Assembly: GCA_035551775.1 (NCBI GenBank)
Contig: DASZMQ010000014.1
Span: forward strand, 523,403-587,402
Source: Mucilaginibacter sp.
GTDB taxonomy: Bacteria; Bacteroidota; Bacteroidia; Sphingobacteriales; Sphingobacteriaceae
Length of the DNA: 64,000 bases
Direction: 5' to 3'
In this document: positions 9,663 to 41,820 of the stretch, piece after piece
Numbering within the stretch: position 1 is the stretch's first letter
Layout of the letters: each line of letters begins with the position of its first letter
Program-made: the position numbers and the translations under genes
The notes under the pieces: model-generated
Told to the model about the DNA's origin: nothing
What the model saw: the letters and a program-made list of their open reading frames with translations, nothing else
The model's database searches: none

Positions 9663-9672
9663 TTATACTTTA

Positions 9673-11073: not shown

Positions 11074-11276
11074 AGATGTGTATTTTGGACACGACAAAAG
11101 TATAATTCTATGGCTGAACATTTACTGACGTAAAAGTATCAAGGCTGTTACCCGACACGCTCCATTGACGGCTGATATGTCCGCAAACAACTTACAATCC
11201 GTCATTAAATATCTGAAAATGGCTTAAAAAACATTAAAAAGCGTACTTTGGCGTTTGTATCCCCAAATCATCTGCG

Positions 11277-12500
11277 ATGCCCCGCGTACAATTAAGCCTG
11301 CTTGTTGTTTTACTTTTGATTGACATTTCTGCCGGGGCACAACAAACCGCAAAGCCCTTCCCGCAACACGTACTATACCATAAAGGTACAATAAAACCCG
11401 ATCATATCTCACAGCAACGATTAGATGGCCTGACACTGGCTTTTTACCGTCAATGGCAAAAACGATATGTGAAACCTGCTTGCAAACCCGGCGAATATTA
11501 TATATGGTTTGAAACAAAAGGCAACAAACAATGCGTTTCCGAAGGGCAGGGTTATGGGATGATCATCACAGTGCTGATGGCGGGCGCCGATCAAGGCGCC
11601 AAACCTATCTACGATGGGCTTTTCAATTTTTATAAAGATCACCGGAACAACCACAAATACCTGATGGCCTGGGCGCAGGATAAAAATTGCAAAAGTATCG
11701 ATCCAAGTTCGGCTACAGATGGGGATATGGACATTGCCTACTCACTTTTGCTGGCAAACAAGCAATGGGGCAGCAAGGGAACGATAAATTATTTGAAAGC
11801 AGCGCAAAACATGATCGGAGCGATCATGAAGTATGAGATCAATCCGAAAACTTACTCTATCATCCTAAGCGACGCGGTTGAGCATGACAGCAGGGATTAT
11901 TTTGATACGAGAAGCTCGGATTTTATGCCCGATCATTTCAAAGCTTTTGAAAAGGTAACGAGCGATGAACGCTGGAAGAAGGTGACTGACGATAGTTACA
12001 GTTTGTTCAGACACATGGAAGAAACTTATAGTCCTGATGCAGGATTGATCCCTGATTTTATCGTCGATATCAATAAGAAAGCCAAACCAGCCAAACCTCA
12101 TTTCCTCGAGTCTAAATATGACGGTTATTACAACTATAACGCCTGCCGTGTGCCCTGGCGCATTGCTACAGATTATCTTTTAACAGGCGATCCCAGAGCT
12201 AAAGCGATCAACGATAAGATCAATCGCTGGATACGCGAAACTACCAAAGGCAACCCGGATAATATTTCGGCAGGCTATACCCTGGAGGGTAATGACATTA
12301 GGGGTCGATATTTTGAGGCACTGAGCTTTATAGGCCCGTTCGCGGTTTCAGCCATGGTCGACCAAAAGGATCAGCAATGGCTTAACAGCGTTTGGGATTA
12401 CCTGGTGCATTTTAAGCTGAAGGATTATGATTATTATGATAACAGTATTAAGCTGCTGGATATGATCGTCCTTTCGGGGAATTATTGGGAGGCTAATTGA
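11277..12500 (+). CDS. Glycoside hydrolase family 8 (endoglucanase/chitosanase-type)
   Basis: ATDGDMDIAYSLLLANKQW fits the GH8 signature A-[ST]-D-[AG]-D-x2-[IM]-A. The catalytic-region segment VSEGQGYGM is also present. Signal peptide present. Confidence 0.85.
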   Translation: MPRVQLSLLVVLLLIDISAGAQQTAKPFPQHVLYHKGTIKPDHISQQRLDGLTLAFYRQWQKRYVKPACKPGEYYIWFETKGNKQCVSEGQGYGMIITVLMAGADQGAKPIYDGLFNFYKDHRNNHKYLMAWAQDKNCKSIDPSSATDGDMDIAYSLLLANKQWGSKGTINYLKAAQNMIGAIMKYEINPKTYSIILSDAVEHDSRDYFDTRSSDFMPDHFKAFEKVTSDERWKKVTDDSYSLFRHMEETYSPDAGLIPDFIVDINKKAKPAKPHFLESKYDGYYNYNACRVPWRIATDYLLTGDPRAKAINDKINRWIRETTKGNPDNISAGYTLEGNDIRGRYFEALSFIGPFAVSAMVDQKDQQWLNSVWDYLVHFKLKDYDYYDNSIKLLDMIVLSGNYWEAN

Positions 12501-13580: not shown

Positions 13581-14843
13581 TTACAATAGTTTCTTCGCCA
13601 CCTCCAGCCCACTGCTCAGCGCTGCCTCCACCGTACCCATGGAAGGGCCTTCATAGGTAAACTCGCCTGCAAAATAGAGCTTATCATCAATGGGCTTTAA
13701 AAGAACTTCCCTGGCCGACCGCGATTCAAGGGTGTCGTAAACGTAAGATCCCAATGTAAAAGGATCATTCGTCCAGTTGGCCACCTTCCAGGCAACGAGG
13801 TTATTTTTTATATGAGCTTCTGTTTTAGAGAAAATTTTTGCCAGAGATCTGACCCCTTCCTGTACAAATTGTTCGTCGGTCAAATGCTTCTTCCTTTCGG
13901 CCGGAAGTCCGCCAAGCCAGCCAGTAAGCACGTTGGAATGTGTAGGATATTGCGTCCACCAGGTAGGAATTTGTTCGTCCGACATGACGAAGCCCATATG
14001 CATCCGCTCGTCTTTCTCCCAAAAGGCATCTTTGAATTCGAACAATATCTTAACTATCGCGCCGAAACCAATTTGCTGAAAGGCTTGTTCGTAGCTCTTC
14101 AGGGATGGTTTGAACATTACCGCGCCGGCTTGTAATACGCCTAAAGGAAGGGCCACAATCACTTTTTTTGCCTGGTGGATATTCCCGTCATCCAAAATAA
14201 CTTTGACCTCGTCTGAGCTCCGGTCAATTTGTTTTACAACCGAATTCAGGTGAAATTCCGCGCCATGAAATTGGCTTTCATTGGCCATGTGCTCCATCAG
14301 CCTACCATAACCCCCTGCAATTCTGTATTGCGCATCATCGTCTTCGTTTCCCCATTCGTCGCGTAAAGCGAATGTGCTGGCTCGTGCCGGATCGGCCGTA
14401 TCATAGCCCGAGGTAAAACGAACGACCCAACTCCTCAGCTGGTCATATTTCGCTTCGCTGAAGTACCGTTTGAGAAAATCAGCAATGGTCATGTCCTCTT
14501 TCAGGTCATTGAACCTTTGCATCAGCTCGCCCCAGCCAGGCATATTCCATGAATTACGCGAAAGCTTACCATCTTGGTAACGCCACATTTCGCCTGCGGT
14601 AGAAATATATTCCAGGCCGGATCCCTGCATCAGCCGCATTGTCACCGGCAGGCTGCCATGGACAAATTCGGCGCCCAGCTCGGCATGTTTAAAAGGAAAT
14701 TGATTATCGAGCGTGTGGATACGGCCGCCTATCCTGTCGCGGGCCTCCAGTACGGCAACTTTCTTACCGGCTTTTGAAAGCGCATAGGCAGCCATAAGCC
14801 CTGCTGCGCCGGCGCCGATGATCAGGATATCAGGATTTGACAT
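13581..14843 (-). CDS. Flavin-containing amine oxidase family oxidoreductase
   Basis: N-terminal FAD dinucleotide fold ILIIGAGAAGLMAAYALSKAGKKVAVLEARDRIGGRI. C-terminal FAGEFT motif typical of amine oxidases. Confidence 0.85.
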   Translation of the reverse strand: MSNPDILIIGAGAAGLMAAYALSKAGKKVAVLEARDRIGGRIHTLDNQFPFKHAELGAEFVHGSLPVTMRLMQGSGLEYISTAGEMWRYQDGKLSRNSWNMPGWGELMQRFNDLKEDMTIADFLKRYFSEAKYDQLRSWVVRFTSGYDTADPARASTFALRDEWGNEDDDAQYRIAGGYGRLMEHMANESQFHGAEFHLNSVVKQIDRSSDEVKVILDDGNIHQAKKVIVALPLGVLQAGAVMFKPSLKSYEQAFQQIGFGAIVKILFEFKDAFWEKDERMHMGFVMSDEQIPTWWTQYPTHSNVLTGWLGGLPAERKKHLTDEQFVQEGVRSLAKIFSKTEAHIKNNLVAWKVANWTNDPFTLGSYVYDTLESRSAREVLLKPIDDKLYFAGEFTYEGPSMGTVEAALSSGLEVAKKLL

Positions 14844-15246
14844 TCGCAGGCAAGATAGCCAGTAAATCAGCCTTACGCAAGTTTATGAAATACGAAAGCC
14901 CTGTTTTACCAGGGCTTCCGCTATAGAGTTGATTGATTGAATTGTTGTGGTAATAACTCATAAGCTGATTGGTTTGTTTTCAATGTATAACATAAATATT
15001 ACAGAGAACCATTTAGCAGGCGGTTATATTCGCGTACCTGTAATTAAATACGTTAATTAGCAGACCTGTCTCGCTTATACCCCTATTATAGACACGTTAA
15101 CTAACCTTTTCGTCGATATTTTCGGGCTATATGTCTATCAGATTTATTTAAGCGACAAAAAAGACGTTGTTTTAAACGGCCAGGCAGCGAAAATGCGGTT
15201 ATTACCGTAATCATTTAATGCCGGACTTATTGCTAACTGTTACCTA

Positions 15247-16482
15247 ATGTTGAAAAACAAATTGTTCAGGTTCGGGATATTTGTTATCCCACTCGCTTTT
15301 GTTTTTTCGCAATGTTTCAACCTGAAAAAGAAGGAGGATCCGCGCGGGAAACAATACGCCGGTTCTGCCACCTGCATCAATTGTCATAAGGACATTTACA
15401 GCTCATACCTGCATACCGCTCACTTTATGGCCTCGAGCCCCGCCGACAGTAATACGGTGCAGGGCAGTTTTGCTAAAGACTCAAGCGAATTCGTTTTCAA
15501 CCCGCATACCAAAGTTGTGATGGATAAACGCAAAAGCGGGGCTTACCAGGTGACTTATGTCGATGGTAAATCGACCCAGGCCGAGCGTTTTGACATCACT
15601 TTTGGCGGCATCAAGGGGCAAACCTATGCCTATTGGTACGCCAATGAACTATTTCAGCTTCCGATATCCTATGTTGACAATGCGCACCAATGGGTCAATA
15701 GTCCGGGCTATAATCCCGATGAACCCGACTATGAGCGTATGATCACCTCGCAGTGCCTCGGTTGCCACATGTCGTACGCTAAGGTAGAACCGGGTAAGCT
15801 GCCCATTTTCTCTTCGCATCCCGAAGGGTTTGACAGGAACAGTATTATCTACAATATCGATTGCGAAAGGTGCCACGGCCCCGCAGCAGAACATGTTAAG
15901 TTTCATATGGAAAATCCCATGGTGAAACAAGCCAAATACATTGCCACTTATAAATCATTGACCCGCGAGCAAAAGATCAACATGTGCGCCGTATGCCATT
16001 CCGGGGCGAACAGCATCACGGTAAAGCCGACTTTCGGCTTTAAACCGGGTGATACGCTAAGCAACTATATGAAAATCCCGCCTGAAAACCTTTCTGTAAA
16101 TTATAGGGACATAGATGTACATGGCAATCAGCGGGGCATGCTGGCAACTAGTAAGTGTTTCATGATGAGCACGATGGATTGCGCCACCTGCCATGATACG
16201 CATCATAATGAGCGAAGCGACACTATATTATACGCTACGCGTTGCTTAACCTGCCATAACAATGCTACTGCCCATCAATGCAAACTTAGCAACCAGCTAA
16301 ACGCAACATTATTGAAAAACAATTGCATATCCTGCCATATGCCGGCATCGCCGTCAAAACTAATCGTAGCAGGCAAATCTGGCGCCATGGTTCATACGCA
16401 TCACATCGGTGTATATCCCGAAGAGACGCAAAAAATTCTTGGCTATCTTAAAGTAAAACCGGCTTTAGCGACAGGGCATTAA
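15247..16482 (+). CDS. Heptaheme c-type cytochrome (multiheme, cytochrome c554-like class)
   Basis: Seven CxxCH motifs read in the translation: CINCH, CLGCH, CERCH, CAVCH, CATCH, CLTCH, CISCH. N-terminal signal with a possible lipobox (VFSQC). Confidence 0.85.
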   Translation: MLKNKLFRFGIFVIPLAFVFSQCFNLKKKEDPRGKQYAGSATCINCHKDIYSSYLHTAHFMASSPADSNTVQGSFAKDSSEFVFNPHTKVVMDKRKSGAYQVTYVDGKSTQAERFDITFGGIKGQTYAYWYANELFQLPISYVDNAHQWVNSPGYNPDEPDYERMITSQCLGCHMSYAKVEPGKLPIFSSHPEGFDRNSIIYNIDCERCHGPAAEHVKFHMENPMVKQAKYIATYKSLTREQKINMCAVCHSGANSITVKPTFGFKPGDTLSNYMKIPPENLSVNYRDIDVHGNQRGMLATSKCFMMSTMDCATCHDTHHNERSDTILYATRCLTCHNNATAHQCKLSNQLNATLLKNNCISCHMPASPSKLIVAGKSGAMVHTHHIGVYPEETQKILGYLKVKPALATGH

Positions 16483-16507
16483 AAAAGCCGGCTTTGTACG
16501 GCCGGCT
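16481..16507 (-). terminator. Hairpin AGCCGGC-N8-GCCGGCT shared by two convergent genes, with a U-run on the minus strand
   Basis: Perfect 7-bp GC-rich stem (16486-16492 / 16501-16507). AAAAA at 16481-16485 gives a U-tract for the minus-strand transcript. Confidence 0.55.
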
Positions 16508-16529
16508 CTGTCAAAGGAAATCTTTCTGT

Positions 16530-18092
16530 TTATTTCTTGAAGTTGTTCTCGAGGACTATAAATGGCAAATGCGTATTCCAGAACGGCTTATAACCCCGTT
16601 CAAACATAAAGCCCGCACCGTAATTGCCCAGGATAATGTCGGGTTTGCCATCGCCGTTCACATCGGCTACGTCCATGCACATCCAGCGGCCATATTTACT
16701 TACAGGCACTGCATGCGGTTTAAAGCTCATCGGACCATCCTGTTCAAAGTAAATAAACTCCTCGCCGGGCCTATCCTTCATGTCTGCAAAGAACGCGATA
16801 GTAGCAATATCAAGATCGCCATCGCCGTCAAAGTCGGCTGCGATAGCTTTGGTGCAGCCGTTTATCGGGTAAAAATAAGTTTGCTTAAAGTTCCAGTCGC
16901 CCTCGTTGGTAAATATATATAAACCATGGTAGGGCTTTAATATGCGGGAGTCTTTGTAATTATAACCACAGGTGTAGATCAGGTCTGGCTTACCGTCATG
17001 GTTAAGATCGGCTAACTGGAAGCTCGACGATCCGTAAACCGGCGGGAAACGCAATAGGTTCCGCGAAGTGAAACCGCCTTTTTTATCATTCAGGTAAAGC
17101 CAAAGACCTTCATCACCGCCGCCATAAAGCACCATCACGTCGGGCCAGCCGTCATTGTTAAAATCCCCGGTAATAGCCTGCGCCGCGCCGGGCCTATCCG
17201 AGATATTGCTTTGCGTATAGGTATGATCGGCATTTTGCCTCATCAGGTACACGCCGCCCACATAACGCCCCTGGGCCAGCACGACATAATCGGTCAAACC
17301 ATCCTTGTTAAAATCAGCCTGCACCGTTTGAACCGGTCGCGCAAGGTCTTCCTGTACCAGCTGCGGCTTTTTGGCCCCCGTGTTACCGTTCAAGTCTGCC
17401 TTCATGATCCTGCCGTTAGGAAAGTCCATCGGAACGATCTGCCCGATGCAGGAAAGAATCGCCTGGCGGTTGCCTTTCTCATCGTTCACAAAGTTTGCGC
17501 TCACCGCAGCCGATGGAAGATTTGCTGCTACACGCGGCCTGAGGTTCTTGTCCCACTCATAAAGATCAAGTGTTCCGACATCGGCTGTATACATTTTTTT
17601 TGTAACAGGGTCAACCTGGAGCATAGAAGTGTAAGCGACGTTTTTGTTGCTATCCGGCTTTTTCAGCGTAAAGCCCGCCCAATCATTCAGCAGCGGGGTC
17701 GGAACCTTGGCGCGTTTTAAGCTGTCCGGCGCCACTTTATCGTAATAAGCAGCTATGATCTCCCAGTTTCCGACCGAAACACCCGTCGTATCCGTCGGCT
17801 TTTTATAATAATTTGTAACGCTATAGGTAGATAACCCCAGGTAGTGCGCCATATCCGGCAGGATATGAAACCTCCATACGTCCTTTGTGATCGCATCGGG
17901 CGGCACCAGCTTATGGCAAGAGGTGCAATAGAGTTCAGTCAGGGCTTTGCCATCGGCGATGGTGTCGCCGGTAGGTTTAAAAGAATCCCCTCCTTTTTTG
18001 GTATTACAGCTATTGAACAACACACTTCCCGACACCAGGAATACGAACAGCAATAAATAAGTTGTGAAGAGCCAGGTCTTGTTTAATTTCAT
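16530..18092 (-). CDS. FG-GAP/VCBS repeat protein with N-terminal monoheme cytochrome c motif
   Basis: Signal/lipoprotein N-terminus (..FNSC). A single CTSCH in GKALTELYCTSCHKLVPP. Repeated DxNxDGxxD calcium-type FG-GAP loops (DFNKDGLTD, DFNNDGWPD, DLNHDGKPD, DFDGDGDLD, DVNGDGKPD). Confidence 0.8.
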   Translation of the reverse strand: MKLNKTWLFTTYLLLFVFLVSGSVLFNSCNTKKGGDSFKPTGDTIADGKALTELYCTSCHKLVPPDAITKDVWRFHILPDMAHYLGLSTYSVTNYYKKPTDTTGVSVGNWEIIAAYYDKVAPDSLKRAKVPTPLLNDWAGFTLKKPDSNKNVAYTSMLQVDPVTKKMYTADVGTLDLYEWDKNLRPRVAANLPSAAVSANFVNDEKGNRQAILSCIGQIVPMDFPNGRIMKADLNGNTGAKKPQLVQEDLARPVQTVQADFNKDGLTDYVVLAQGRYVGGVYLMRQNADHTYTQSNISDRPGAAQAITGDFNNDGWPDVMVLYGGGDEGLWLYLNDKKGGFTSRNLLRFPPVYGSSSFQLADLNHDGKPDLIYTCGYNYKDSRILKPYHGLYIFTNEGDWNFKQTYFYPINGCTKAIAADFDGDGDLDIATIAFFADMKDRPGEEFIYFEQDGPMSFKPHAVPVSKYGRWMCMDVADVNGDGKPDIILGNYGAGFMFERGYKPFWNTHLPFIVLENNFKK

Positions 18093-18106
18093 GTCTGATT
18101 GAAGTA

Positions 18107-19423
18107 TTATTTGGTTAGTTTCAGTTTCTGCCAGATAAGCTCGCCCACCTGGCGGCCTTGTTTAGCGCCCAGGAGCGAACTATTGAGGTAATGTATACCT
18201 CCGTAGAACCGGCTCATCGCGGTTTCATCCGACGCCTGCAAGAATGATTTAAAATCGCGCTGCATGCCGATATATTTCCGGTCGCTGGTATCCCGGAAGG
18301 CAAAATTGTCGCCGAACTCATGGGTCAATACGACTGCAGACGCCGCACTGATGGTGCTATGGCCCGCGGTATATTCCGGGAAAGGCGGTGTCTGCAGCAA
18401 TGGCAGCCAGTTGTGATCTATTTTTTCGTTGATCACCGTTACGGGCCGGACATAAGCATATTTATACTTCACCTCCCAGCACGTTATAAACGACTCGAAA
18501 AGGGCCACTGAAGTTAACGCGTATGCCTGGGCGGTTTTAAGGGCGTCCGCATGGGTCTTTCTGCACGCGATGGTGGTGATCCCTATCCAATGCCCTCCCG
18601 GGGTGATCTTTTTATCGGCAAACATCATGTGCCCATTGTGGACGACGACGAATGGGTTATCGTCCCAATAAGTGGCAATCTTCTGTTGTTCCTTTGTCAG
18701 GTGCTTATTTGTATCATATACCATTTTTAGCTGCTTGAAGTAGGCGCTCGTAGTATCGTCGCTATACCTGGGCGGAGGCGGGGGCATAAATATGGTTGAA
18801 GAATCTACCAGGAGTGTGTGCATGTCGCCCCAGCAAAACTCTACACCATCCATATAATCCGGCGGGGTTGGTCTCCATTTACCCGGTGAATTACTCCCCA
18901 GGTATTTAGGTTTTCCGCGCGTCTGAGGGTAATCATCAATGTTAGCCCTTTTCAGGACAGTATTCCCGATTTTCTCGCCCAGTTCCATTGAATTGGCATA
19001 CGTCGAGTCGGGCAGCGCATTCTTAAACAAGCCATATATATGGTCCTCGTACCTTTTCAGCGTATCAACAGAGAAAGTTACTTTATGGGCCACAGTGAAA
19101 AATGCTTTGGTTGCGGCCAGGGTGAAATTATAGCCTTTGCCCTTTCCAGGTTCGGGCATCTTATCAAAACCTCTTAGCTGAGCGGTGATCGAATTATATC
19201 TTGGATCGGCGTATTTCATGGCCTCATAGCTTGCCAGGTTCGTGTAGCCGTAGATGCGCGCCGCGACCGGCGGGGTAAAAACGTCGTAAATGATCACATT
19301 CGTCAACTCATCTTCATTCGCATGCAATATATCGGCATCAGCCGGCAGGCTGCCGCTTTTGTGACCACAAGAGGCCAGGGCGCCGGCAAATAAAATTGCA
19401 ATAACCAGTTTTATATCCTTCAT
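18107..19423 (-). CDS. PAP2-superfamily protein, vanadium-dependent haloperoxidase-like
   Basis: Lipoprotein signal (GALASC). The three PAP2 motifs are readable: K-x6-RP (KYKYAYVRP), AGHS (YTAGHSTIS) and SR-x5-H (SRFYGGIH). Confidence 0.7.
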   Translation of the reverse strand: MKDIKLVIAILFAGALASCGHKSGSLPADADILHANEDELTNVIIYDVFTPPVAARIYGYTNLASYEAMKYADPRYNSITAQLRGFDKMPEPGKGKGYNFTLAATKAFFTVAHKVTFSVDTLKRYEDHIYGLFKNALPDSTYANSMELGEKIGNTVLKRANIDDYPQTRGKPKYLGSNSPGKWRPTPPDYMDGVEFCWGDMHTLLVDSSTIFMPPPPPRYSDDTTSAYFKQLKMVYDTNKHLTKEQQKIATYWDDNPFVVVHNGHMMFADKKITPGGHWIGITTIACRKTHADALKTAQAYALTSVALFESFITCWEVKYKYAYVRPVTVINEKIDHNWLPLLQTPPFPEYTAGHSTISAASAVVLTHEFGDNFAFRDTSDRKYIGMQRDFKSFLQASDETAMSRFYGGIHYLNSSLLGAKQGRQVGELIWQKLKLTK

Positions 19424-19431
19424 CTCTTTAA

Positions 19432-22400
19432 TTAATTAACGGCTAAATTTCTTGTATGTCCAAAACTGTCTGTCACGGTAACTGAGGCCATTGAACTGTC
19501 AATATTAATATATCTGCCCGATTGCGACAAGAAGGAATCGCCATAGTAAAACTCCTGTTTGGTTATCTTGCCGTTCCGGTACCTGATCATGGCGTACATA
19601 TCCATCGGCCGTAGTTTAACAAGGTGAACATTCCGTTTTAGCCCGAATATTTTCATTGCGCCCCTGTTCTGGCTGGCTGCCAGCAGATAGTCGCCTTTGG
19701 CCCCCATTACTTTTACCAGGGCCTTCCCGTTGCCGGGGATGTAGATCCCGCTTTGCAATATACTAAGCGGCGTAAAGTTACCCTTCCCGTCCCCCTTCAT
19801 CATCAGGCCGTTGAGCGCATCATAACGCCCGGTGGTTAATTCGGTACCGTAGTCGTTGCCATTGATCACCACATCCAGGTTTCCGTCCCCGTCAAAATCG
19901 TCCACAGCCATGCCGCACAGCTCTGAAATTTGTGCCTGCAGCGGCAGCGGAATGATCTTAAACTTACCGCCGCCTTCGTTATGCAGGTAAACCGACTGCA
20001 GCATATTCGCTTTCAGCCGGAGGGCCCCTTTGCGCATATCCGCCGGGATCACGTCGTCCATAGTAGCTACGGCATACGATTTGTAATTCTGGAACTTAAC
20101 GCGCATGCCTATCATTTGCTTCACAATATCGTCCCTGGTATGCACCGGGAATTCCTTCATTTTTCCATCCTGGTCCTTCATGAACACGGATGGAAAGGCA
20201 TCATAGCTGCCATTATTGTCAAAATCCTTAGCGGTGATGTAGGTTGGGTATTGGTCGCTGGCTTTAAAGAAGGTGTTCAGTCCGGTATTGCCCACAATGT
20301 AGTCTGTCCGGCCATTATGCTCGAAATCGCCCGCAACTATGGTGTTCCACCAGCCCAGTGAATCGGCTACGCCGGTGCTGGCGGTTACGTTTTTGAACAC
20401 GCCATGATCATTCTTCAAAAAGGTCACAGGCATCCATTCCCCTGCAAGTACGAGGTCGGGCCAGCCATCGCCGTCGAAATCGGTGAAAAGCGCATCACAC
20501 ACCAGTCCAGCATTGTCCAGGTCTTTAGCAACGCTTGCTGTAACGTCCGTAAATTTCACATGTCCGTCCCTGCTATCATTTCGCAGGATAAAGCTGGAAA
20601 CAGGTTTTGGATAATTCCATGGGTCTACCCTGCCCGATACAAAAAGATCAAGCTTTCCATCCTTGTTATAGTCTACAGCGCGCACACATAATTTGCTTGT
20701 ATGATTTACCGGCAATGCGTCAACGGCTTCTTTAAAATTACCCTTGCCGTCGTTAACATAAAGCCTGTCCTGGTAATATTTGGAGCCGGGTTGTTCGGCA
20801 TAGCCGCCGCTTGCAACGTAGAGATCCGGCTTGCCGTCGCCGTTGGCATCGAACAGGATCAGCCCTTCATCCTTGAAATCATCGTTCACGTTTTGCTGAT
20901 CCGGCGGCAGCAGGCTCCGCTGTATAAATTTGCCGTCGGCTTGCTGCAGGAATACCTGCGACGGATATTTTGATGTGCCGCCTACGATAATATCATCGTA
21001 CCCGTTACCGTCAACATCGCCAACAGCCAGACCCGGAGAATATTCCGACAATTTGTGGGGCAAAAGCTTTTGAATGTTGAAATCAACAAAATCGGCGTCT
21101 TCATGCGTATAATTGACACCGAGCATCCGCGTCACTTCCTTAAACACCGATTGCTTATCCAGCTCGGGTTGAGCAAAGGTGTAAGCTTCCGTTGCGCTAC
21201 CGATGTCCACTTTGAGCAGCTGATCGGCTTTGACATTCGTCAGCGTTTGCTTCTTAAAGTTCTGCCAGCGGATAACAACCGAGTCTATTGTTGTTATGCT
21301 GCCAAGACCAAAATGGGCAATATTTTGAATGGTCGATAAATAACCCCTGAAAGGCGTATTCTCATAAACCTGGTGTTTGCCATGGTCATAGTAAATATCG
21401 GCCCATGCGCCTATTCCATCGATGTTATTCGAACCGCCATGGAACTTGATATTCAGGTAATGGGTATGATCGGGATCTTGCTCCCGGCTCGTGTTCCGGT
21501 AAATCATGGCCTCATCATTGATATTGTTGATGATCACATCCATATCGCCGTCATTATCCAGGTCGGCATATACGGCGCCATTCGAAAAACTAGGCGTACT
21601 GAAACCCCAGCTATTGGTTACATCCTCAAATTCCAGGTTACCTTTGTTCCTGAAGGCATAATTGGCGATCTTAACTACCGGTATCTGGTCAAGCACCTCT
21701 TTTTTTGACGCTATAAAATAGGCTTGTGCCCTGAAGTTCATAAAATCATGGTCGGTCACATCGCGTGGGTAACCGTTGGTGATGATCAGGTCGCGGTAGC
21801 CGTCATTATCAAAATCCGTCAGCAAGGGTCCCCAACTCCAGTCTGTTTGTGACATGCCGGCAAGGAAAGATACCTCGCTGAAAGCAGGGTCTCCTATCGT
21901 GTCGTTCTGCCCTACCCGTGGCCCCTGGTTCAGCTGCAATGTATTCCGCGGATATTGGTACTGGTAATTGTACTTATCCATATTCTGGAAAGCCTGGTAG
22001 TTGTTGGGTTGCATGAACATTTTTTTCCGGTAATTATCCGGCGGGTTCATGTCCAGTTCCACCACGTCGGCAAGGCCGTCGTTATTGATATCCTCGATAT
22101 CCTGGCCCATAGAGCTCAGCGACGTATGCTTGAAATACTCCCTGGTTTTGTCGGTAAATGTACCGTCGTGGTTGTTGATGTACAGAGTATTGTTTGGAAG
22201 AAAGTCATTGGTCACATAAATATCTTTCCAGCCATCCCGGTTAATGTCTACAGTACTTGCGGCGTGGCCATATCCTTCTATCAATATTCCCGCCTGTTTG
22301 GAAACATCATGAAACACAGGGTGCTTTAAGACAGGGTCCCAGTCATTCCTGTACAAATGGCCTGTACTGTGTCCCGAGCCGTCAGTAATTATCGGTTTAA

Positions 22401-23010
22401 AAAGGCTGATGTTATCCGTACTTTCCGCATCATTTACCGTCAGGTACATATCCAGGTCCCCGTCGTTATCATAGTCGAAGAACGATGCCATGGTTGAATA
22501 AAGTGTTATATCCAGCCCATATTCCTTAGCCATTTCTTTGAAATGCGGAACGCCGTTTTTATCCGGTCCCTGGTTAATGTACAGCAGGTTGCGCCGTTTG
22601 GACGAATCGCCTAAAAGCGTATTGCACACGTATATATCCGGCAATCCATCGTTGTTAATATCTACGACAGCGACTCCTCTGCCCCATCCGCCCTTTCCGC
22701 CAATGCCGGCTGCCCGGGTGACATCCTCGAATTGCATGTTGCCTTTGTTGATATAGAGCCTGTTTGATACCGCGTTACCGACAAAGAAAATATCCTGTAA
22801 GCCGTCGCCGTTGAAATCACCCACACCAACACCGCCGCCGTTATAAATATTCAGTTTATCGAGGGGATTGATGCTATCATTCTCGACTATCACATTGTTA
22901 AAATGTACGCCGGAGTGCGATGAGGGTACCTGTTCAAATAAAGTTCTCTTCTTACATGAAAAAACAAACAGGGGGAACAATAGAATAATCCAATAATTAT
23001 GGGACTTCAT
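19432..23010 (-). CDS. Very large VCBS/FG-GAP repeat lipoprotein with two UnbV/ASPIC-like modules (CRTAC1-like)
   Basis: The likely start MKSHNYWIILLFPLFVFSCKK (ATG at complement of 23008-23010) gives a lipoprotein signal. Many DxDxDGxxD loops. Two segments (..DGIGAWADIYYDHGKHQVYE..GYLSTIQNIAHFGLG.. and the C-terminal ..YYGDSFLSQSGRYI..) resemble UnbV/ASPIC. The track ORF extends to 23085. Confidence 0.85.
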   Translation of the reverse strand: MKSHNYWIILLFPLFVFSCKKRTLFEQVPSSHSGVHFNNVIVENDSINPLDKLNIYNGGGVGVGDFNGDGLQDIFFVGNAVSNRLYINKGNMQFEDVTRAAGIGGKGGWGRGVAVVDINNDGLPDIYVCNTLLGDSSKRRNLLYINQGPDKNGVPHFKEMAKEYGLDITLYSTMASFFDYDNDGDLDMYLTVNDAESTDNISLFKPIITDGSGHSTGHLYRNDWDPVLKHPVFHDVSKQAGILIEGYGHAASTVDINRDGWKDIYVTNDFLPNNTLYINNHDGTFTDKTREYFKHTSLSSMGQDIEDINNDGLADVVELDMNPPDNYRKKMFMQPNNYQAFQNMDKYNYQYQYPRNTLQLNQGPRVGQNDTIGDPAFSEVSFLAGMSQTDWSWGPLLTDFDNDGYRDLIITNGYPRDVTDHDFMNFRAQAYFIASKKEVLDQIPVVKIANYAFRNKGNLEFEDVTNSWGFSTPSFSNGAVYADLDNDGDMDVIINNINDEAMIYRNTSREQDPDHTHYLNIKFHGGSNNIDGIGAWADIYYDHGKHQVYENTPFRGYLSTIQNIAHFGLGSITTIDSVVIRWQNFKKQTLTNVKADQLLKVDIGSATEAYTFAQPELDKQSVFKEVTRMLGVNYTHEDADFVDFNIQKLLPHKLSEYSPGLAVGDVDGNGYDDIIVGGTSKYPSQVFLQQADGKFIQRSLLPPDQQNVNDDFKDEGLILFDANGDGKPDLYVASGGYAEQPGSKYYQDRLYVNDGKGNFKEAVDALPVNHTSKLCVRAVDYNKDGKLDLFVSGRVDPWNYPKPVSSFILRNDSRDGHVKFTDVTASVAKDLDNAGLVCDALFTDFDGDGWPDLVLAGEWMPVTFLKNDHGVFKNVTASTGVADSLGWWNTIVAGDFEHNGRTDYIVGNTGLNTFFKASDQYPTYITAKDFDNNGSYDAFPSVFMKDQDGKMKEFPVHTRDDIVKQMIGMRVKFQNYKSYAVATMDDVIPADMRKGALRLKANMLQSVYLHNEGGGKFKIIPLPLQAQISELCGMAVDDFDGDGNLDVVINGNDYGTELTTGRYDALNGLMMKGDGKGNFTPLSILQSGIYIPGNGKALVKVMGAKGDYLLAASQNRGAMKIFGLKRNVHLVKLRPMDMYAMIRYRNGKITKQEFYYGDSFLSQSGRYINIDSSMASVTVTDSFGHTRNLAVN

Positions 23011-23096
23011 TAAAAGATGTATAATACGGTCAGCTAATATATAAAAAAGGGGAAGATGTCTCCATCTTCCCCTTGATATTTTCAAGTAGTTTCAGA

Positions 23097-25070
23097 TCAT
23101 GGATAACCTGCGTTTTGTTTCAAAGCGCCATGCTCTCTTGAGATCTCCTGGGTTGGGATAGGATATATCTCGTTTCTGCCCTGGGTGAAGGTAGAACCAC
23201 TCATAACGGCATCGCCAAAGAATGGCAAAGTTACTGTCTTCCCTGCAATCACCTCGGTATAACTCTTGTAACTTAAATTTGTCGCGATGGCTTTGTTCAA
23301 TACGGCTGCCATATAGCCCGCAGGCTCAGGGGCGCCGGTTCCAGAACCGCCATCCCAGCGCTGAAGATCGAAGAAACGCTGACCTTCCATAGCCAGTTCA
23401 AGCCTTCTCTCAAAGAATACTGCCTGGCGGGCAAATTCTTTGGTGCCACCTGTAATCTGACCGGTATAACGAGCTATCTGGTAATTAGCAGCATTCTGGG
23501 TGTTATCAACAATTGGTTTGGTTGGATCGTTTCCGGTATAACCTGTCAGACGGCCTTTAACCCAGTTTTCAGGATGGTCAACCATACGGCCACGCACCTG
23601 GTTCACCAAAGCCTCAGCCCCTGCCTGGTTGCCCAGCTCTACGTCGCACTCCGCTTGAAGCAACAGGATATCCGAAAAACGGATCATGTTGTAGTTCATT
23701 GCCGAAGACTGTCCCGGTGCCCAACCGCCATAGCTTTCGCTCGCGCTTGCGGCTTCGCTTTTCCTGTACACGTTCTTCATGTTGATGTATGGTCCTGCGT
23801 CAGTCTGCGCACGTGCCCAGCTGGCTCCCGGCATTTCACCGTAATCAAGAAATGGGATACCCCTTCTGCCTGCGGTCCAGTCTAAGCGCGGGTCCACGGG
23901 CGTCGTTACATCGGGCATATAGGCGGGGTCTGTAGCGTCCACACCCTGATCCGACTTTAATGTGGATGTATTATGCGGGTTTCCACTATTATACGTATCA
24001 GCAGGATTGATCGCACCACCATCATAATCATAGTTTCCGAGTGTACCGTCGGAATTAATGAACGGCAGCCCTTGTGCATTTACTTTAAACGCATTTACAA
24101 GCGTAAATGACGGCTGATAGAAACCGCAGCAGCCCGTAGGGCCCGCAGCCGGAAAGTTCAAAACGTCGCCGGGGTTACCATTAGCGCCGCTTGAACCATC
24201 TTGTACAGTCATTTGAACTGCGAATACGGCCTCCGCCCCATTCTTCATAGCGGCATCAAAGTTGTTGTTGAAATTTGTGTTCAGCGCAAATTTCACGTTC
24301 TGGTCATTAACACCATTTGTGATGATATCAGTCAATGCATTAGATGCATCCTGATATTTGTGTTCAAACATAAGCGCCCTGGCCAGGAAAGCCTCAGCGG
24401 CATATTTATTAGCGCGGCCAAGCTGGGCCTGGGTTGCAGGCAATGCCCCCATAGCATCAGTCAGGTCTTTCTCCACCTTGTCCCAGATCGGGCCCGGGTT
24501 ACCTACGTCGTAGTTGTTTTTCGTATAGGTAACGGTCTCGTCTATATAAGGTACGTTACGATAAACTTTGGACAACTCTTCATTGAACACGCCGCGCAGG
24601 AATTTAGCTTCAGCTGTTACTTCAGCCGCATAGTCCTTGGTAAGCGAACCGTCTGTTACCAGCGGTATCTCACGCAGCACGTCATTGGCGCGCTGAACGC
24701 CATCAAGGCACACCAGCCATTTGGTAATCACATAATTGTTTGAACCGTCAACGCTATGGTTCATGATGGAAGCCGCGTCAGGCTGGTCGGTCGGGTTCGA
24801 GCCTTTGTTGGCGTCATCAGACGCGATACCGCCGAAATGCCAGTTACTTACTGATCCACCCCAGGTGTCACCGGTAGCTGTTGGGTTACCACTCATCGGC
24901 AGCAGGGCATAAGCACCAATAAGAAGCCCGTCGACACCCGCCTTGCTTGCCAATACGTTCGGCAGCACGGAATTTACCACCGGCTGGTTGAGGAATTTCT
25001 TACACGAATAGGATAGCGTAAGAAATATCAACGCGAACGGGATGATAAATTTAAAAATCGATTTTTTCAT
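23097..25070 (-). CDS. RagB/SusD-family nutrient-binding outer membrane lipoprotein
   Basis: 657 aa. Lipobox LSYSCKK. Typical SusD C-terminus (..RxxELAxEGQRFFDLQRW.. and ..IYPIPTQEI..). Immediately downstream of SusC. Confidence 0.9.
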   Translation of the reverse strand: MKKSIFKFIIPFALIFLTLSYSCKKFLNQPVVNSVLPNVLASKAGVDGLLIGAYALLPMSGNPTATGDTWGGSVSNWHFGGIASDDANKGSNPTDQPDAASIMNHSVDGSNNYVITKWLVCLDGVQRANDVLREIPLVTDGSLTKDYAAEVTAEAKFLRGVFNEELSKVYRNVPYIDETVTYTKNNYDVGNPGPIWDKVEKDLTDAMGALPATQAQLGRANKYAAEAFLARALMFEHKYQDASNALTDIITNGVNDQNVKFALNTNFNNNFDAAMKNGAEAVFAVQMTVQDGSSGANGNPGDVLNFPAAGPTGCCGFYQPSFTLVNAFKVNAQGLPFINSDGTLGNYDYDGGAINPADTYNSGNPHNTSTLKSDQGVDATDPAYMPDVTTPVDPRLDWTAGRRGIPFLDYGEMPGASWARAQTDAGPYINMKNVYRKSEAASASESYGGWAPGQSSAMNYNMIRFSDILLLQAECDVELGNQAGAEALVNQVRGRMVDHPENWVKGRLTGYTGNDPTKPIVDNTQNAANYQIARYTGQITGGTKEFARQAVFFERRLELAMEGQRFFDLQRWDGGSGTGAPEPAGYMAAVLNKAIATNLSYKSYTEVIAGKTVTLPFFGDAVMSGSTFTQGRNEIYPIPTQEISREHGALKQNAGYP

Positions 25071-25109
25071 AATTTGAAATTTTAATATTTTTTACTAAAC
25101 ATCTTTTTC

Positions 25110-28100
25110 TTAGAATGTCAGGTTCACACCTACAATGTACTGTCTTTGGTTGTTCGGATAGTTACCCTCGTCTATACCAAAAGAGCTCTGACGTCCCGTA
25201 CCCGGAGGAAGCTCAGGGTCAAGGCCGTTATACGGTGTAAAGGTGAACGGGTTTGTAGCCTGCAGATAAATGCGCAGCTTGCTCATACCAATAGTTTTAA
25301 TGATCTTAGGATCAAAGGTATATCCCAATTGTATGGTCCTAACCTTCAGGAACGATGCATTTTGCACATAGAACGAACTGGTTTGGGTGGTACCCATAGT
25401 ATTCAGGTCGCTCTGTATTGGCAATAACGGGTTGGTTACACCCGGAGCACCAAAGGAGTTGTGCAAGGCATCATTTGATTTTGCACCGTTAAATGAACCG
25501 TAGAAATCTGTCCAGTACAAAGTATAGTTATATACCTGGTTGCCGTATGAGCCGTATAGAACAGCTCCAAGATCAAAGTTCTTATAGCTTGCCCCTAAAT
25601 TGATACCATAAGTAAAGTCAGGGTTCGGATTGCCTATGAAGGTACGGTCAGCGTCATTGACCTGGCCGTCGCCGTTTACATCGGCATACCTAAACGAACC
25701 GGGCTGGGCGCCTGCGTAGGCAACTACACCCGGGTTGGGTGTCCATGCTTTGGTCGACGGATCCTGGGTAAACTCATTGGTGTTATAGAATCCAATTACT
25801 TTGTAACCATAGAACTCGCCTATAGGATGGCCAACTTCGTCGCGTACGATATCATTTACACGGTTACCTGCGTCATCGATATAATTACCAGGCAGGCTTG
25901 TAATCTTGTTGGTGTATTTTGTAATGTTAATACCAAAATGATATTTAAAGTCGTTGCCAACTGAATTGCGATAGTCAATAGCAAGGTCAAAACCGTTGTT
26001 TTGCACGTCACCAAGGTTGATCTGAGGAGCACCTGTGTCGCCGAGACCAACTGTAGCAGGCAATGATGCCGCGAACAACAGGCCGCTGATCGTTTTCCTA
26101 TACCAGTCGAATGTGATATCGAAGTGATTAAACAACGTAGCATCAAAACCAAAGTCCAGGGTCTTATCAGTTTCCCATGTAGTTTTTTGGTTGCCCACAT
26201 TGCTATAGTAGAAACCCTGGCTGGTTCCGTTGCCGCCGTTGATCGCATAGTCACCATTACCCAGGGCTGAGTTAAACAGGTCATATGCATTGCCGCCGCC
26301 TACGTTCTTATTATTACCGGCTTCACCCCAGCTTCCGCGGATCTTCAGGTCATTGATCCAGGTAACTGACTTCAGGAAGTCTTCCTGTGAAATACGCCAT
26401 GCTGCCGAAACCGATGGGAAGGTACCCCACTGTACGCCCGGATAGAATGCCGAGTAACCGTCGCGGCGTATTGTAGCCCGCAAAATATATTTATCATTAT
26501 AAATATAATCTATGCTTCCAAAGAATGATTGGGTGGCTAAAGGCTGGTCAGCAGCGCTTCCGCGGGTAAGGGTGGCGGTCGCGTTGCTCAGGTTGACATA
26601 AGCAGGAGCAGTTGAGAAAAGACTGGCGCCATTACCATATATATAGCGGCCATAACCATACAGCTGCTCAAAACCCACCATCGCGGTTAAGTTATGCTTA
26701 CCAAAGGTTTGGGCATACTTAACGGTATTGGTCCAGTTGTAATTGCTGTAATAGCCGGCCCCTTCAGAAACAGTGTTAGGATTGCCATGAGACTCATAGT
26801 CCATGTATGCAGGCGTAGAAAAATCATTATAGTAATAGTTGTCGATGTTTCCGCCCATGCTAATGTGCGCAGTGAAATGCTTCAGGAAATCCAGTTCGGC
26901 GTACACATTGCCCTGTATGTTCCAGTTCCTGCTTAATTGGTTATTGAACTGATAGGCTGCCGCAACAGGGTTTGAAGCGTTACCAAGGGGTTCACCGCCT
27001 GGTCCGTCATAGTCGCCGCCGAATTGCTTACCTGAAATATCATACACAGGTATCTGGGGCATTTCGCGATAAGTCTCCGAGATCGGATCGCCTTCGTTCT
27101 GGTTGAGTAACCCTCCCTGGCCAGGATATGCACCTGTACCGCCTTCAGGAGACAAAGTATAATAGAAGAATCCGCTTTCACCCACCCTAAGGTTTTTCAA
27201 TATATTAAAGGTGGTGTTGATACGGGTCTCGTAGCGCTTATAATAAGTATAAGCTTCGGTACCTTGCTGATCAAGATAACCTACTGACAAGTAGTAATTG
27301 TTCTTGTCATTAGCGCCGCTTGCGGTTACCGTATGGTATTGCTCTGGCGCAGCCTTGAACAGTTCATGGAACCAATCGGTACCCGATTGATTGAATTTTT
27401 GTACCAGGAAGTCGTTTGCAGCGTTGGTGGGATCAAAATGATAATCCGCCAAAAGGTCGGCTGGTACCGCCGGATAGCCCGTACCGCCTGCAACACCGGA
27501 TGCGCTGGCGCCGCTGGGTAATACGCCCTGGTAACCGTATACAGGTAAAGTACCTGCACCGCCCTGGTATATCTTGTTGTAAACACTACCGTCACCGGCG
27601 AGGTAAGACAAACTTGACATACCGGAAGGTGATAGGATATTGAATACGTTACCGCCTTTAGGCACCTGCGTACCATAGTACGCATCATAAGAAATAGTAG
27701 AAGCGCCGGCCTTACCGTGCTTGGTGGTGATAATGATTACACCGTTACCACCGTTTACACCGTAAATAGCTGTTGCGCCTGCGTCTTTCAGTACCTGGAT
27801 GCTTTCGATGTCGTTCGGGTTGATCGTCGACATGTTGTTACCCTGGACACCGTCGATAACATACAACGGCTGCGAGTTGTCCAGGTTGCTGATACCACGA
27901 ACAAACACCGCGCTACCACCACCCGGCTGACCTTGTGTAACTACGGTTACACCGGCTGCCTGGCCCTGCAATAACTGGTCAGTACTACCACCTGTCGGGA
28001 TCTTTTTGGCATCGGCCACGTTGACTATCGCCACCGACGAGGCAATATCCTTTTTACGCTGCGACTGATAGCCCGTCACCACAACTTCATTCAAAGTGCT

Positions 28101-28412
28101 GTTGGTAACGTCCAGCGTAATGGTACCGAGGTCGGCCGAATTGACGGTAACGGTCTTGGGCGCGTAACCGATATAGGATATGACTAAGACATATCCTGTT
28201 TTACCGGTCAAAGTAAAGTTACCATTCACGTCAGTCACGACACCTACGTTTGTACCTTTAATTTTTACGGTAGCCCCGATTATCGGCTGTTTATCATCGG
28301 ATCCGATGACTTTACCGCTAATCTTTGTTTGGGCCGTAACTGCCAATGAGGATAGGAGGCATAGGATCAGTATGCACATCGTCCTTCCTTTTAGAAGTAA
28401 ACTTTTAAACAT
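25110..28412 (-). CDS. SusC/RagA-family TonB-dependent outer membrane transporter
   Basis: 1100 aa. Carboxypeptidase-regulatory-like N-domain (ISGKVIGSDDKQPIIGATVKIKGT). Plug (LQGQAAGVTV...VRGISN...PLYVIDGV). C-terminal ...VGVNLTF. Confidence 0.92.
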   Translation of the reverse strand: MFKSLLLKGRTMCILILCLLSSLAVTAQTKISGKVIGSDDKQPIIGATVKIKGTNVGVVTDVNGNFTLTGKTGYVLVISYIGYAPKTVTVNSADLGTITLDVTNSTLNEVVVTGYQSQRKKDIASSVAIVNVADAKKIPTGGSTDQLLQGQAAGVTVVTQGQPGGGSAVFVRGISNLDNSQPLYVIDGVQGNNMSTINPNDIESIQVLKDAGATAIYGVNGGNGVIIITTKHGKAGASTISYDAYYGTQVPKGGNVFNILSPSGMSSLSYLAGDGSVYNKIYQGGAGTLPVYGYQGVLPSGASASGVAGGTGYPAVPADLLADYHFDPTNAANDFLVQKFNQSGTDWFHELFKAAPEQYHTVTASGANDKNNYYLSVGYLDQQGTEAYTYYKRYETRINTTFNILKNLRVGESGFFYYTLSPEGGTGAYPGQGGLLNQNEGDPISETYREMPQIPVYDISGKQFGGDYDGPGGEPLGNASNPVAAAYQFNNQLSRNWNIQGNVYAELDFLKHFTAHISMGGNIDNYYYNDFSTPAYMDYESHGNPNTVSEGAGYYSNYNWTNTVKYAQTFGKHNLTAMVGFEQLYGYGRYIYGNGASLFSTAPAYVNLSNATATLTRGSAADQPLATQSFFGSIDYIYNDKYILRATIRRDGYSAFYPGVQWGTFPSVSAAWRISQEDFLKSVTWINDLKIRGSWGEAGNNKNVGGGNAYDLFNSALGNGDYAINGGNGTSQGFYYSNVGNQKTTWETDKTLDFGFDATLFNHFDITFDWYRKTISGLLFAASLPATVGLGDTGAPQINLGDVQNNGFDLAIDYRNSVGNDFKYHFGINITKYTNKITSLPGNYIDDAGNRVNDIVRDEVGHPIGEFYGYKVIGFYNTNEFTQDPSTKAWTPNPGVVAYAGAQPGSFRYADVNGDGQVNDADRTFIGNPNPDFTYGINLGASYKNFDLGAVLYGSYGNQVYNYTLYWTDFYGSFNGAKSNDALHNSFGAPGVTNPLLPIQSDLNTMGTTQTSSFYVQNASFLKVRTIQLGYTFDPKIIKTIGMSKLRIYLQATNPFTFTPYNGLDPELPPGTGRQSSFGIDEGNYPNNQRQYIVGVNLTF

Positions 28413-41759: not shown

Positions 41760-41820
41760 GAAAATGAATTGTGATTACGTGAATACATACTACCTGTGAA
41801 ATCCGATCAAAAAATTATTT

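Follow-up and report, generated by a model that had tools for sequence, protein, structure and literature searches.

A vanadium haloperoxidase homologue, a CRTAC1-like propeller and haem proteins in a SusC/SusD-type locus of Mucilaginibacter

Zg-VIPO1, the vanadium-dependent iodoperoxidase of Zobellia galactanivorans, displayed no activity other than that of an iodoperoxidase when it served as the positive control of an assay (PMC10427571). Iodine uptake by Arenibacter C-21, the genome of which encodes five VIPO homologues, requires H2O2, O2, glucose and Ca2+ (PMC5064120). On the side of polysaccharide degradation, Cbp2D of Cellvibrio japonicus, in which a c-type cytochrome domain is joined to a carbohydrate-binding module, acts as the electron donor of a lytic polysaccharide monooxygenase (LPMO) (PMC12542752). 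The locus described here (positions 15247–28412) lies in 64,000 nucleotides of DNA from Mucilaginibacter sp. (assembly GCA_035551775.1, contig DASZMQ010000014.1, positions 523,403 to 587,402; this whole 64-kb stretch is referred to as the window, and all coordinates and strands are those within it). It joins a homologue of Zg-VIPO1 to a SusC/SusD pair, a CRTAC1-like lipoprotein of the ASPIC/UnbV family and two lipoproteins predicted to carry haem. To our knowledge, no bacterial CRTAC1/ASPIC-UnbV member has a known function.

Tentatively, and with considerable reservation, the region is read here as a polysaccharide utilisation locus (PUL) carrying an envelope-anchored halide/peroxide redox module as an oxidative accessory, not as a stand-alone system free of carbohydrate-active enzymes (CAZymes). 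What is new is a PUL-type locus with a conserved, undescribed haloperoxidase-propeller-haem module. A preliminary description of this DNA knew of no characterised example; for the cluster this holds, as no description of it or of the ASPIC-haloperoxidase pairing was found in the searchable literature, but one component does have a characterised relative, Zg-VIPO1. The six open reading frames (ORFs) of that description and its intergenic gaps of 39, 86 (or 11), 8 and 14 nt were confirmed, and the domain call of every protein was backed by profile scans (Pfam, NCBIfam). Lipoprotein-type signals with Cys boxes are present on SusD, the ASPIC protein, the haloperoxidase homologue and both haem proteins.

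The haloperoxidase homologue and its propeller partner

The gene at 18107–19423 (−), which starts 8 nt past the ASPIC gene, encodes a lipoprotein of 438 aa that is a vanadium-dependent haloperoxidase (VHPO) homologue. When it was searched against all PDB sequences, the sole entry matched was 4CIT/4USZ, i.e., Zg-VIPO1, with residues 6–436 aligning to 12–449 of 4CIT_A (E 1.8e-122; 44.7% global identity). The earlier call as PAP2/haloperoxidase-like is thereby sharpened to a full-length homologue of an iodide-specific enzyme. Pfam PAP2 scored over its cutoff and VCPO_2nd weakly (17.3 bits; cutoff 27), the precomputed annotation of the protein includes PF22778, and NCBI names its relatives "vanadium-dependent haloperoxidase". 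Ten positions which we take to form the active site of Zg-VIPO1 all carry the expected residue in the Zobellia sequence. The protein of the window has the same residue at eight of them (W316, K319, R326, F348, G354, H355, R405 and H411). Among these are the vanadate-site residues K319, R326, G354, H355, R405 and H411, which correspond to K324, R331, G359, H360, R410 and H416 of the Zobellia enzyme; W316 and F348 are neighbours of that site. At the level of sequence, the identity of the protein as a vanadium haloperoxidase homologue is firm.

The ASPIC gene in front of it (19432–23010, (−)) encodes a CRTAC1-like lipoprotein of 1192 aa. Its longest ORF spans 19432–23085, but the likeliest start is the ATG at 23010 (MKSHNYW...VFSC), and therefore the gap of 86 nt, not that of 11 nt, is the real distance between susD and the ASPIC gene. 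The protein matched FG-GAP_3 (2.7e-70; 233 bits) and UnbV_ASPIC (3.4e-19; 68.9 bits, cutoff 23.4), the latter at residues 557–624 of the longest ORF. It contains two FG-GAP Ca-binding propeller regions, with a score of 145 for duplication between the N- and C-terminal halves. Two UnbV/ASPIC modules had been proposed; only one is detectable, the last 130 aa giving no Pfam hit at E ≤ 10. A C-terminal second module was accordingly dropped, its local alignment to the central module scoring 28 versus 25.5 ± 4.4 for shuffled sequences. In alignments of 28 and 17 sequences, nearly all conserved residues are the D, N and G of the Ca sites. That the protein might be an H2O2-producing oxidase had been considered because Arenibacter showed a requirement for Ca2+ and glucose oxidase; this idea was downgraded, as only the D/N/G residues of the Ca sites are conserved and no cofactor motif was seen.

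How tightly these genes are linked was determined by a genome scan covering one genome per GTDB species, with the haloperoxidase alignment as the query, which yielded 80 loci (the L numbers below denote these and further loci that were compared with them); their gene content was assigned by tblastn and ORF clustering. The ASPIC gene lies immediately upstream of the VHPO gene in 61 of the 66 loci with enough upstream sequence. SusC and SusD are encoded in 51 of 59 loci and the haem-propeller protein in 65 of 77, and all five genes occur together in 47 of the 58 fully covered species-representative loci, which is far beyond chance and in line with the co-occurrence that the preliminary description had expected. 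The layout also recurs in ∼45 soil metagenome contigs, mostly Mucilaginibacter-like. The weight of the synteny evidence is carried by loci from other lineages. Two loci of Chitinophagales have the order SusC-SusD-ASPIC-haem-propeller-VHPO (L079 and L080), and a Ferruginibacter locus has SusC-SusD-ASPIC-VHPO (L076). A metagenome-assembled genome (MAG) of Chitinophagaceae has ASPIC-VHPO-SusC-SusD-GH43 (L061). In a MAG of Sphingobacteriales the order is ASPIC-haem-propeller-(type IX secretion system protein)-DUF1573-GH16-VHPO (L073), and in another locus it is SusC-SusD-ASPIC-short ASPIC-VHPO-HTCS-GH3 (L070; HTCS, hybrid two-component system regulator).

The pairing extends to marine genera. In Zobellia sp. 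OII3, the gene for Zg-VIPO1 (100% match) is located 7 nt downstream of three tandem genes for 1100-aa FG-GAP/UnbV_ASPIC lipoproteins, and in Arenibacter, Flagellimonas and Pricia two or three ASPIC genes directly precede the VHPO orthologue. In these marine genera the gaps measure 0–130 nt, and the tandem lipoproteins have diverged, being 35–38% identical to the ASPIC protein of the window. Within 10 kb, the marine loci encode neither SusC/D nor a haem-propeller protein nor a glycoside hydrolase. Thus, the ASPIC-haloperoxidase pair is a conserved core across three classes of Bacteroidota; in the soil lineages (Sphingobacteriia and Chitinophagia) it is placed in glycan-utilisation loci, and haem-propeller proteins are added.

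A halogen module kept for its own sake, as has been proposed for Arenibacter C-21 and Zobellia, could account for part of this pattern: iodide or bromide would be oxidised for uptake or accumulation, for peroxide detoxification or for antagonism against fungi, algae or competitors through hypohalite, and the linkage to SusC/D would be an inherited gene order devoid of transport coupling. The homology to the iodide-specific Zg-VIPO1 and the stand-alone ASPIC-VIPO clusters of four marine genera fit this explanation, as do the dependence of iodine uptake by Arenibacter C-21 on H2O2 and Ca2+, given that the ASPIC protein is Ca-binding, the conserved hairpin that sets the cargo genes apart from susCD (see below) and the ASPIC-VHPO pairs lacking SusCD in L034 and L037. 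However, SusC-SusD-ASPIC-(cytFG)-VHPO recurs with rearranged order outside the genus (L076, L079 and L080; cytFG being the haem-propeller gene), and SusCD follows ASPIC-VHPO in L061, which argues for a functional rather than a merely inherited linkage. The haem-propeller genes are also left unexplained, and we consider this explanation unlikely.

Two further features of the haloperoxidase neighbourhoods were observed. In the marine loci, the iodoperoxidase gene is followed by genes for a GyrI-like membrane protein and a lipoprotein of 285–289 aa (L081, 3–9993; L083, 114–9989; L082; L084); the GyrI-like gene and that for the 288-aa lipoprotein beside Zg-VIPO1 have no homologue in the window or in the soil loci. 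Second VHPO paralogues of Mucilaginibacter (L011, L014, L063, L064, L068 and L072), some of them tandem pairs, reside in another conserved context, together with small proteins (clusters c15, c28 and c33, the first of which has no Pfam match) and with no ASPIC, SusC/D or haem genes nearby.

Haem-propeller and hepta-haem proteins

The cytFG gene (16530–18092, (−)) follows the VHPO gene and encodes a lipoprotein of 520 aa that consists of a predicted mono-haem c-type cytochrome domain and a seven-bladed FG-GAP propeller. Its haem motif, CTSCH, is at residues 56–60, behind the lipoprotein signal; the motif count of one CxxCH here and seven in the neighbouring cytochrome agrees with the heme sites originally listed. 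CxxCH is kept in 103 of the 105 orthologues and paralogues of cytFG in the loci. When the 100-residue N-domain was searched against 1.84 billion representatives, 226 hits were obtained, nearly all of them fragments or proteins of ∼500 aa with the domain at the N-terminus, and of the full-length distant relatives 48 out of 50 have both CxxCH and the FG-GAP calcium motifs. In an alignment of 49 sequences (23–61% identity), C56, C59, H60, W73, P79 and M81 are invariant, as are R252, E328, D362 and K386 of the propeller. The N-domain has only weak Pfam similarity (DHC, 0.014). These patterns indicate a small dedicated family with a putative class-I-like His/Met haem site.

The AlphaFold (AF2) model of the protein (pLDDT 83) consists of a helical N-domain and the seven-bladed propeller. 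Foldseek matched this model to generic seven-bladed propellers (aldos-2-ulose dehydratase, integrin alpha and LGI1), the top match being aldos-2-ulose dehydratase (E 6e-11; TMq 0.54), and therefore no specific function follows from the fold. This propeller and the C-terminal one of the ASPIC protein are homologues (26% identity).

Convergent with cytFG, a gene at 15247–16482 (+) encodes a c-type cytochrome lipoprotein of 411 aa with seven CxxCH motifs. The hairpin which the preliminary description had assigned to the ends of both the operon and this gene was found at 16486–16503, inside the 47-nt convergent gap; a T-run lies on its minus-strand side. All seven CxxCH motifs and the lipobox are kept in 13 of 13 full-length orthologues. 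The hepta-haem gene is, however, not a fixed member of the module, as had been assumed, since only 17 of the 57 informative loci have it. In the loci compared (L004–L080 and L085–L155), the slot after the first cytFG gene is taken by a second, co-directional cytFG paralogue (45–49% identical) in 38 loci, by the hepta-haem gene in 17, by both in none and by neither in two. A gene for a c-type cytochrome in this slot (38 plus 17 loci) fits a redox requirement of the module.

With eight haem sites on lipoproteins, extracytoplasmic electron transfer also comes to mind, in which respiratory electrons would travel through the haem lipoproteins to an acceptor outside the cell, for instance humics or metals, or electrons would come in from an external donor, with the other genes being accessory. 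The hepta-haem protein weakly resembles the DmsE and GSU2203 decahaem families, has a weak match to Cytochrom_c3_2, and has its best PDB match in 6I5B (E 1.3e-7), which we take to be the surface cytochrome OcwA. Yet its scores are far below the family cutoffs (54.3 versus 325 bits for DmsE and 43.6 versus 192 bits for GSU2203), its gene is on the opposite strand and confined to the minority of loci given above, no gene for a porin-cytochrome partner was seen, and the conserved ASPIC-VHPO pair would be unexplained. This alternative is therefore regarded as very improbable.

SusC/SusD, glycan context and transcription units

The defining pair of a SusC/SusD-type PUL is present, with susC (25110–28412, (−)) and susD (23097–25070, (−)) adjacent and separated by 39 nt. 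The SusC/RagA-type TonB-dependent transporter (1100 aa) scored 809.5 bits with TIGR04056 (cutoff 368), contains the TIGR04057 signature and is made up of CarboxypepD_reg, Plug and barrel domains; an STN signalling domain is absent according to the Pfam scan. The SusD/RagB-family lipoprotein (657 aa) matched PF07980 (2e-35) and PF14322 (4.9e-15) and has the lipobox LSYSC. The ASPIC gene is the first lipoprotein gene after susD (86 nt on; lipobox VFSC), i.e., it is in the SusE position.

The five minus-strand genes had been taken for one operon. Their tight spacing on one strand is in favour of this, but a single unit is doubtful because a terminator-like hairpin is conserved between susD and the ASPIC gene. 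In the window, a hairpin with a 12-bp GC-rich stem and a T-run (23047–23074, (−)), terminator- or attenuator-like, sits in the 86-nt gap and is the strongest such site of the scanned 14.8–31.7 kb. A hairpin with a T-run occurs at the equivalent position in 54 of 55 related loci (within L004–L080) spanning three orders, including those of Chitinophagales and Ferruginibacter, and its stems vary in sequence between loci while pairing is retained. One nucleotide past the hairpin and T-run of the window, TATATTAG begins; a motif of the form TAnnTT(T/A)G, which like TATATTAG resembles the −7 promoter box of Bacteroidetes, stands right after the T-run in 27 of the 55 susD-ASPIC gaps, the window included, compared with 9.7 expected from shuffles. 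The five genes thus probably form two units, susCD and a cargo unit of three genes, which seem better described as linked via attenuated read-through or a separate promoter. The element between them resembles a terminator or attenuator next to a promoter and would set the ratio of SusC/D to cargo. The Rfam scan gave no match inside the locus. Elsewhere in the window, it detected a fluoride riboswitch (RF01734; 40.7 bits; 41816–41892, (−)) upstream of a gene for a 124-aa CrcB/FluC-like membrane protein (41385–41759, (−)), an ordinary fluoride-export unit that is unrelated to the locus.

The preliminary description had noted the lack of CAZymes and of a regulator. This is correct between 15247 and 28412, where no CAZyme gene was found, but not for the flanks, which encode a glycoside hydrolase (GH) on either side and a regulator. 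The gene for a BglX-type GH3 β-glucosidase (29151–31454, (−); NF011678, 991.7 bits, cutoff 666) is co-directional with susC and located 738 nt upstream of it; in ∼45 loci, the 3′ end of an orthologue is directly upstream of susC. Divergent from GH3, a gene at 31650–32411 (+) encodes an NrtR/AraR-type regulator with Nudix and winged helix-turn-helix parts (NrtR_WHD, AraR_C and NUDIX domains), which also occurs at the equivalent position in L027, L030, L034, L037, L052 and L140 and is a candidate regulator of the locus. No gene for an HTCS, SusR or extracytoplasmic function (ECF)/anti-sigma factor was found in the annotated neighbourhood of 9.7–34 kb. On the other side, a flavin amine-oxidase-family oxidoreductase is encoded downstream (13581–14843, (−); in 25 genome loci), followed by a GH8 on the opposite strand (11277–12500, (+); PF01270, 2.6e-30; in 19 genome loci). 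The layout of the genus is NrtR (divergent)/GH3-SusC-SusD-ASPIC-VHPO-haem-propeller-(second copy or hepta-haem)-GH2-flavin amine-oxidase/GH8 (opposite strand). Among the relatives, 37 genome loci and the closest metagenomic one (L085) encode the GH2, which has the Ig domain of exo-β-D-glucosaminidases (Ig_GlcNase); its gene usually stands after the cytochrome slot and before that of the amine-oxidase homologue. In the window this site (14844–15246) has no GH2, and tblastn found no copy anywhere in the 64 kb. In other lineages, genes for GH16, GH43, GH3 and HTCS are interleaved with those of the module, the HTCS gene coming after the module in L070. The module is, hence, met with time and again inside glycan-utilisation loci whose set of enzymes varies, and the notion of a CAZyme-free alternative to a PUL was abandoned in view of the conserved GH3/GH2/GH8 layout in the genus and the interleaved GH16, GH43, GH3 and HTCS genes elsewhere.

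The flavin amine-oxidase homologue was considered as a periplasmic source of H2O2 and rejected, as its Rossmann motif begins at residue 5, a signal peptide is lacking and the protein is predicted to be cytoplasmic. Further downstream, past the GH8 gene, the region 5246–11121 (−) encodes an outer-membrane efflux protein (OEP; 482 aa) and contains ORFs of 1084 and 397 aa, which together may form an efflux operon; several relatives likewise have clusters matching genes of this region (c11 and c12) next to the locus.

The glycan context could also belong to an ordinary PUL, in which the ASPIC protein and cytFG would be glycan-binding proteins or unrecognised propeller CAZymes (lyase, hydrolase or dehydratase), VHPO a phosphatase or accessory acting on a decorated glycan, and the haem incidental or an electron exit of the sugar-dehydrogenase type. 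The ASPIC gene holds the post-susD slot usual for surface glycan-binding lipoproteins, the module is flanked by BglX, GH2 and GH8 throughout the genus, with GH16, GH43, GH3 and HTCS genes interleaved elsewhere, and the top structural match of the cytFG propeller, aldos-2-ulose dehydratase, is an enzyme acting on sugar derivatives. Moreover, FG-GAP-type propellers are known in PL11 lyases and in a fungal lectin binding N-acetylglucosamine, and the PAP2 fold is common to acid phosphatases. On the other hand, conservation of the ASPIC-VHPO pair is just as strong in marine Flavobacteriaceae, where neither SusC/D nor any GH is encoded within 10 kb, and the closest characterised relative of VHPO is a haloperoxidase, not a phosphatase. 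That CxxCH...Met does not vary within a dedicated family speaks for a role in redox chemistry, the Foldseek matches of cytFG (which include integrins and LGI1) are generic, and the flanking GH families vary by lineage, so that no single glycan is implied. We regard an ordinary PUL as somewhat doubtful. The redox or oxidative-processing role that the preliminary description had suggested appears reasonable, because VHPO aligns over its full length with Zg-VIPO1 and the CxxCH of cytFG is conserved; its stand-alone, CAZyme-free character was given up.

Proposed function and comparison with known systems

If the region is a PUL with a halide/peroxide redox module, its parts might act together as follows. 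One transcription unit, susC-susD, would be closed by the hairpin and T-run, and a second one, comprising the ASPIC, VHPO and cytFG genes, would end at the hairpin shared with the hepta-haem gene. The haloperoxidase, located either in the periplasm or at the outer membrane, would use H2O2 to turn a halide (I− or Br−) into hypohalous acid, and the ASPIC protein would be its fixed Ca2+-binding partner, either binding or displaying the target polymer or anchoring the enzyme at the envelope. The haem proteins may shuttle electrons between the respiratory chain and the halide chemistry, either to supply peroxide or to quench excess oxidant. Oligomers thus released or modified would be taken in by SusC/D, and the BglX-type GH3, joined by GH2 and GH8 in relatives, would complete their breakdown. 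The protein identities, homologies, conserved motifs and gene linkage from which this chemistry is proposed are observed; the chemistry itself is inferred.

Several observations weigh against this proposal. The locus encodes no enzyme that both generates H2O2 and has an export signal, most soils are poor in iodide, and hypohalite made beside periplasmic c-type cytochromes would be self-damaging. The alignments of 28 and 17 ASPIC sequences contain no cofactor-type Cys/His motif, which makes any role assigned to this protein a guess. Two of the ten presumed active-site positions, both next to the vanadate site, are substituted compared with Zg-VIPO1 (Tyr263 to Phe258 and Ser358, of the Ser-Gly-His motif, to Ala353), with loss of a hydroxyl group in either case. 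Ala353 is invariant among the 20 closest relatives of VHPO, and the syntenic orthologues are split between PEYPSGH (Ser; 33) and PEYTAGH (Ala; 33). As Ser is retained by roughly one half of them, the Ser-to-Ala exchange is the mark of a subclade, not a trait of the family, and Phe258 and Ala353 may reflect a shift in halide preference or activity. Furthermore, most of the syntenic loci are from Mucilaginibacter, and the counts are inflated by shared ancestry. Finally, ASPIC and cytFG occur without VHPO in L148 and L149, SusCD and cytFG without ASPIC or VHPO in L140, and ASPIC and VHPO without SusCD or cytFG in L034 and L037, and VHPO paralogues are found in unrelated contexts (L011 and L063). 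Because variants without single parts exist, the parts of the module are modular, i.e., separable from one another.

A wider possibility, which we put forward as quite improbable, is that the Ca-binding propellers of the ASPIC/UnbV (CRTAC1) family are dedicated partners of halide-oxidising chemistry, a general family for handling reactive halogen, and that in soil the pair has been wired to SusC/D and haem-propellers as a hypohalite route into recalcitrant biomass. It would tie together the ASPIC-vanadium-iodoperoxidase pair, the dependence of Arenibacter iodine uptake on Ca2+ and H2O2, and the UnbV protein of the minimal enediyne cassette. UnbV, the namesake of the UnbV_ASPIC domain, is presumably the E4 gene of the enediyne E3/E4/E5/E/E10 cassette, and we presume that it is linked to the iodinated step of the pathway. 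Conservation of the E3/E4/E5/E/E10 cassette is documented (PMC5181780, PMC9992847), and iodinated intermediates belong to the pathway, namely an iodoanthracene and, in the wording of a title cited in PMC10760148, a "diiodotetrayne intermediate". In non-anammox bacteria of other phyla, FG-GAP genes of the CRTAC1 family are located between homologues of hydrazine synthase α and βγ, which are haem-containing propeller and cytochrome c peroxidase-like proteins (PMC12758564). The latter is a second case in which these propellers are associated with redox proteins of the haem-c type. Together, the hydrazine-synthase and enediyne leads hint that peroxide, haem or halogen chemistry accompanies the family.

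If these proposals were true, a first functional handle would be gained on two large orphan families, the bacterial CRTAC1/ASPIC-UnbV propellers and the haem-c-FG-GAP lipoproteins. Bacterial vanadium haloperoxidases would extend from marine associates of algae to common soil Bacteroidota, where they would matter for the cycling of soil iodine and bromine and for organohalogen formation, and the PUL paradigm would gain a non-hydrolytic, oxidant-based accessory, in spirit like the LPMO/cytochrome systems. Halogen assays already exist for Zobellia and Arenibacter, so that the ASPIC-VIPO pairing is directly testable, provided that the Zobellia strain is, as we presume, genetically tractable.

With canonical Bacteroidota PULs, the locus shares tandem susC and susD, a lipoprotein gene after susD, glycoside hydrolases nearby (GH3 and GH8, plus GH2 in relatives) and a post-susD hairpin. 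It differs from them in that the three genes after susD, rather than encoding CAZymes, specify a CRTAC1-like propeller, a haloperoxidase homologue and a haem protein, and in that the window has no HTCS or ECF/anti-sigma pair and SusC no STN domain, leaving the NrtR/AraR-like protein as the sole regulator candidate. Human CRTAC1 (PDB 9ETN) and the ASPIC/UnbV family combine, as the window protein does, an FG-GAP Ca-binding propeller with a UnbV_ASPIC domain. The latter protein is, in contrast, a lipoprotein of 1192 aa with two propeller regions and no EGF domain, and its match to 9ETN is weak and patchy (E 6.8e-13). Cbp2D resembles cytFG in having a small exported c-type cytochrome domain next to a non-redox, probably ligand-binding module, and in being encoded among polysaccharide-degradation genes. 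The likeness is one of architecture, and no sequence relationship is claimed; the fused module of cytFG is an FG-GAP propeller instead of CBM2, and its partner would be a vanadium haloperoxidase or another protein rather than a copper LPMO. The hepta-haem protein is exported and has several CxxCH motifs lying close together, which, along with weak profile matches, connects it with cytochromes of the DmsE/MtrA, GSU2203 and OcwA types. Unlike these, it is a lipoprotein with seven predicted haems from an aerobic soil member of the Bacteroidota, and its gene is interchangeable with that of a mono-haem propeller protein at one slot of the locus. Zg-VIPO1, finally, agrees with VHPO of the window in full-length homology, in being a lipoprotein and in the position of its gene directly downstream of one or more genes for ASPIC/UnbV FG-GAP lipoproteins. 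The window gene, however, stands behind SusC/D and beside haem-propeller genes, which Zobellia lacks within 10 kb, and its host is a soil bacterium.

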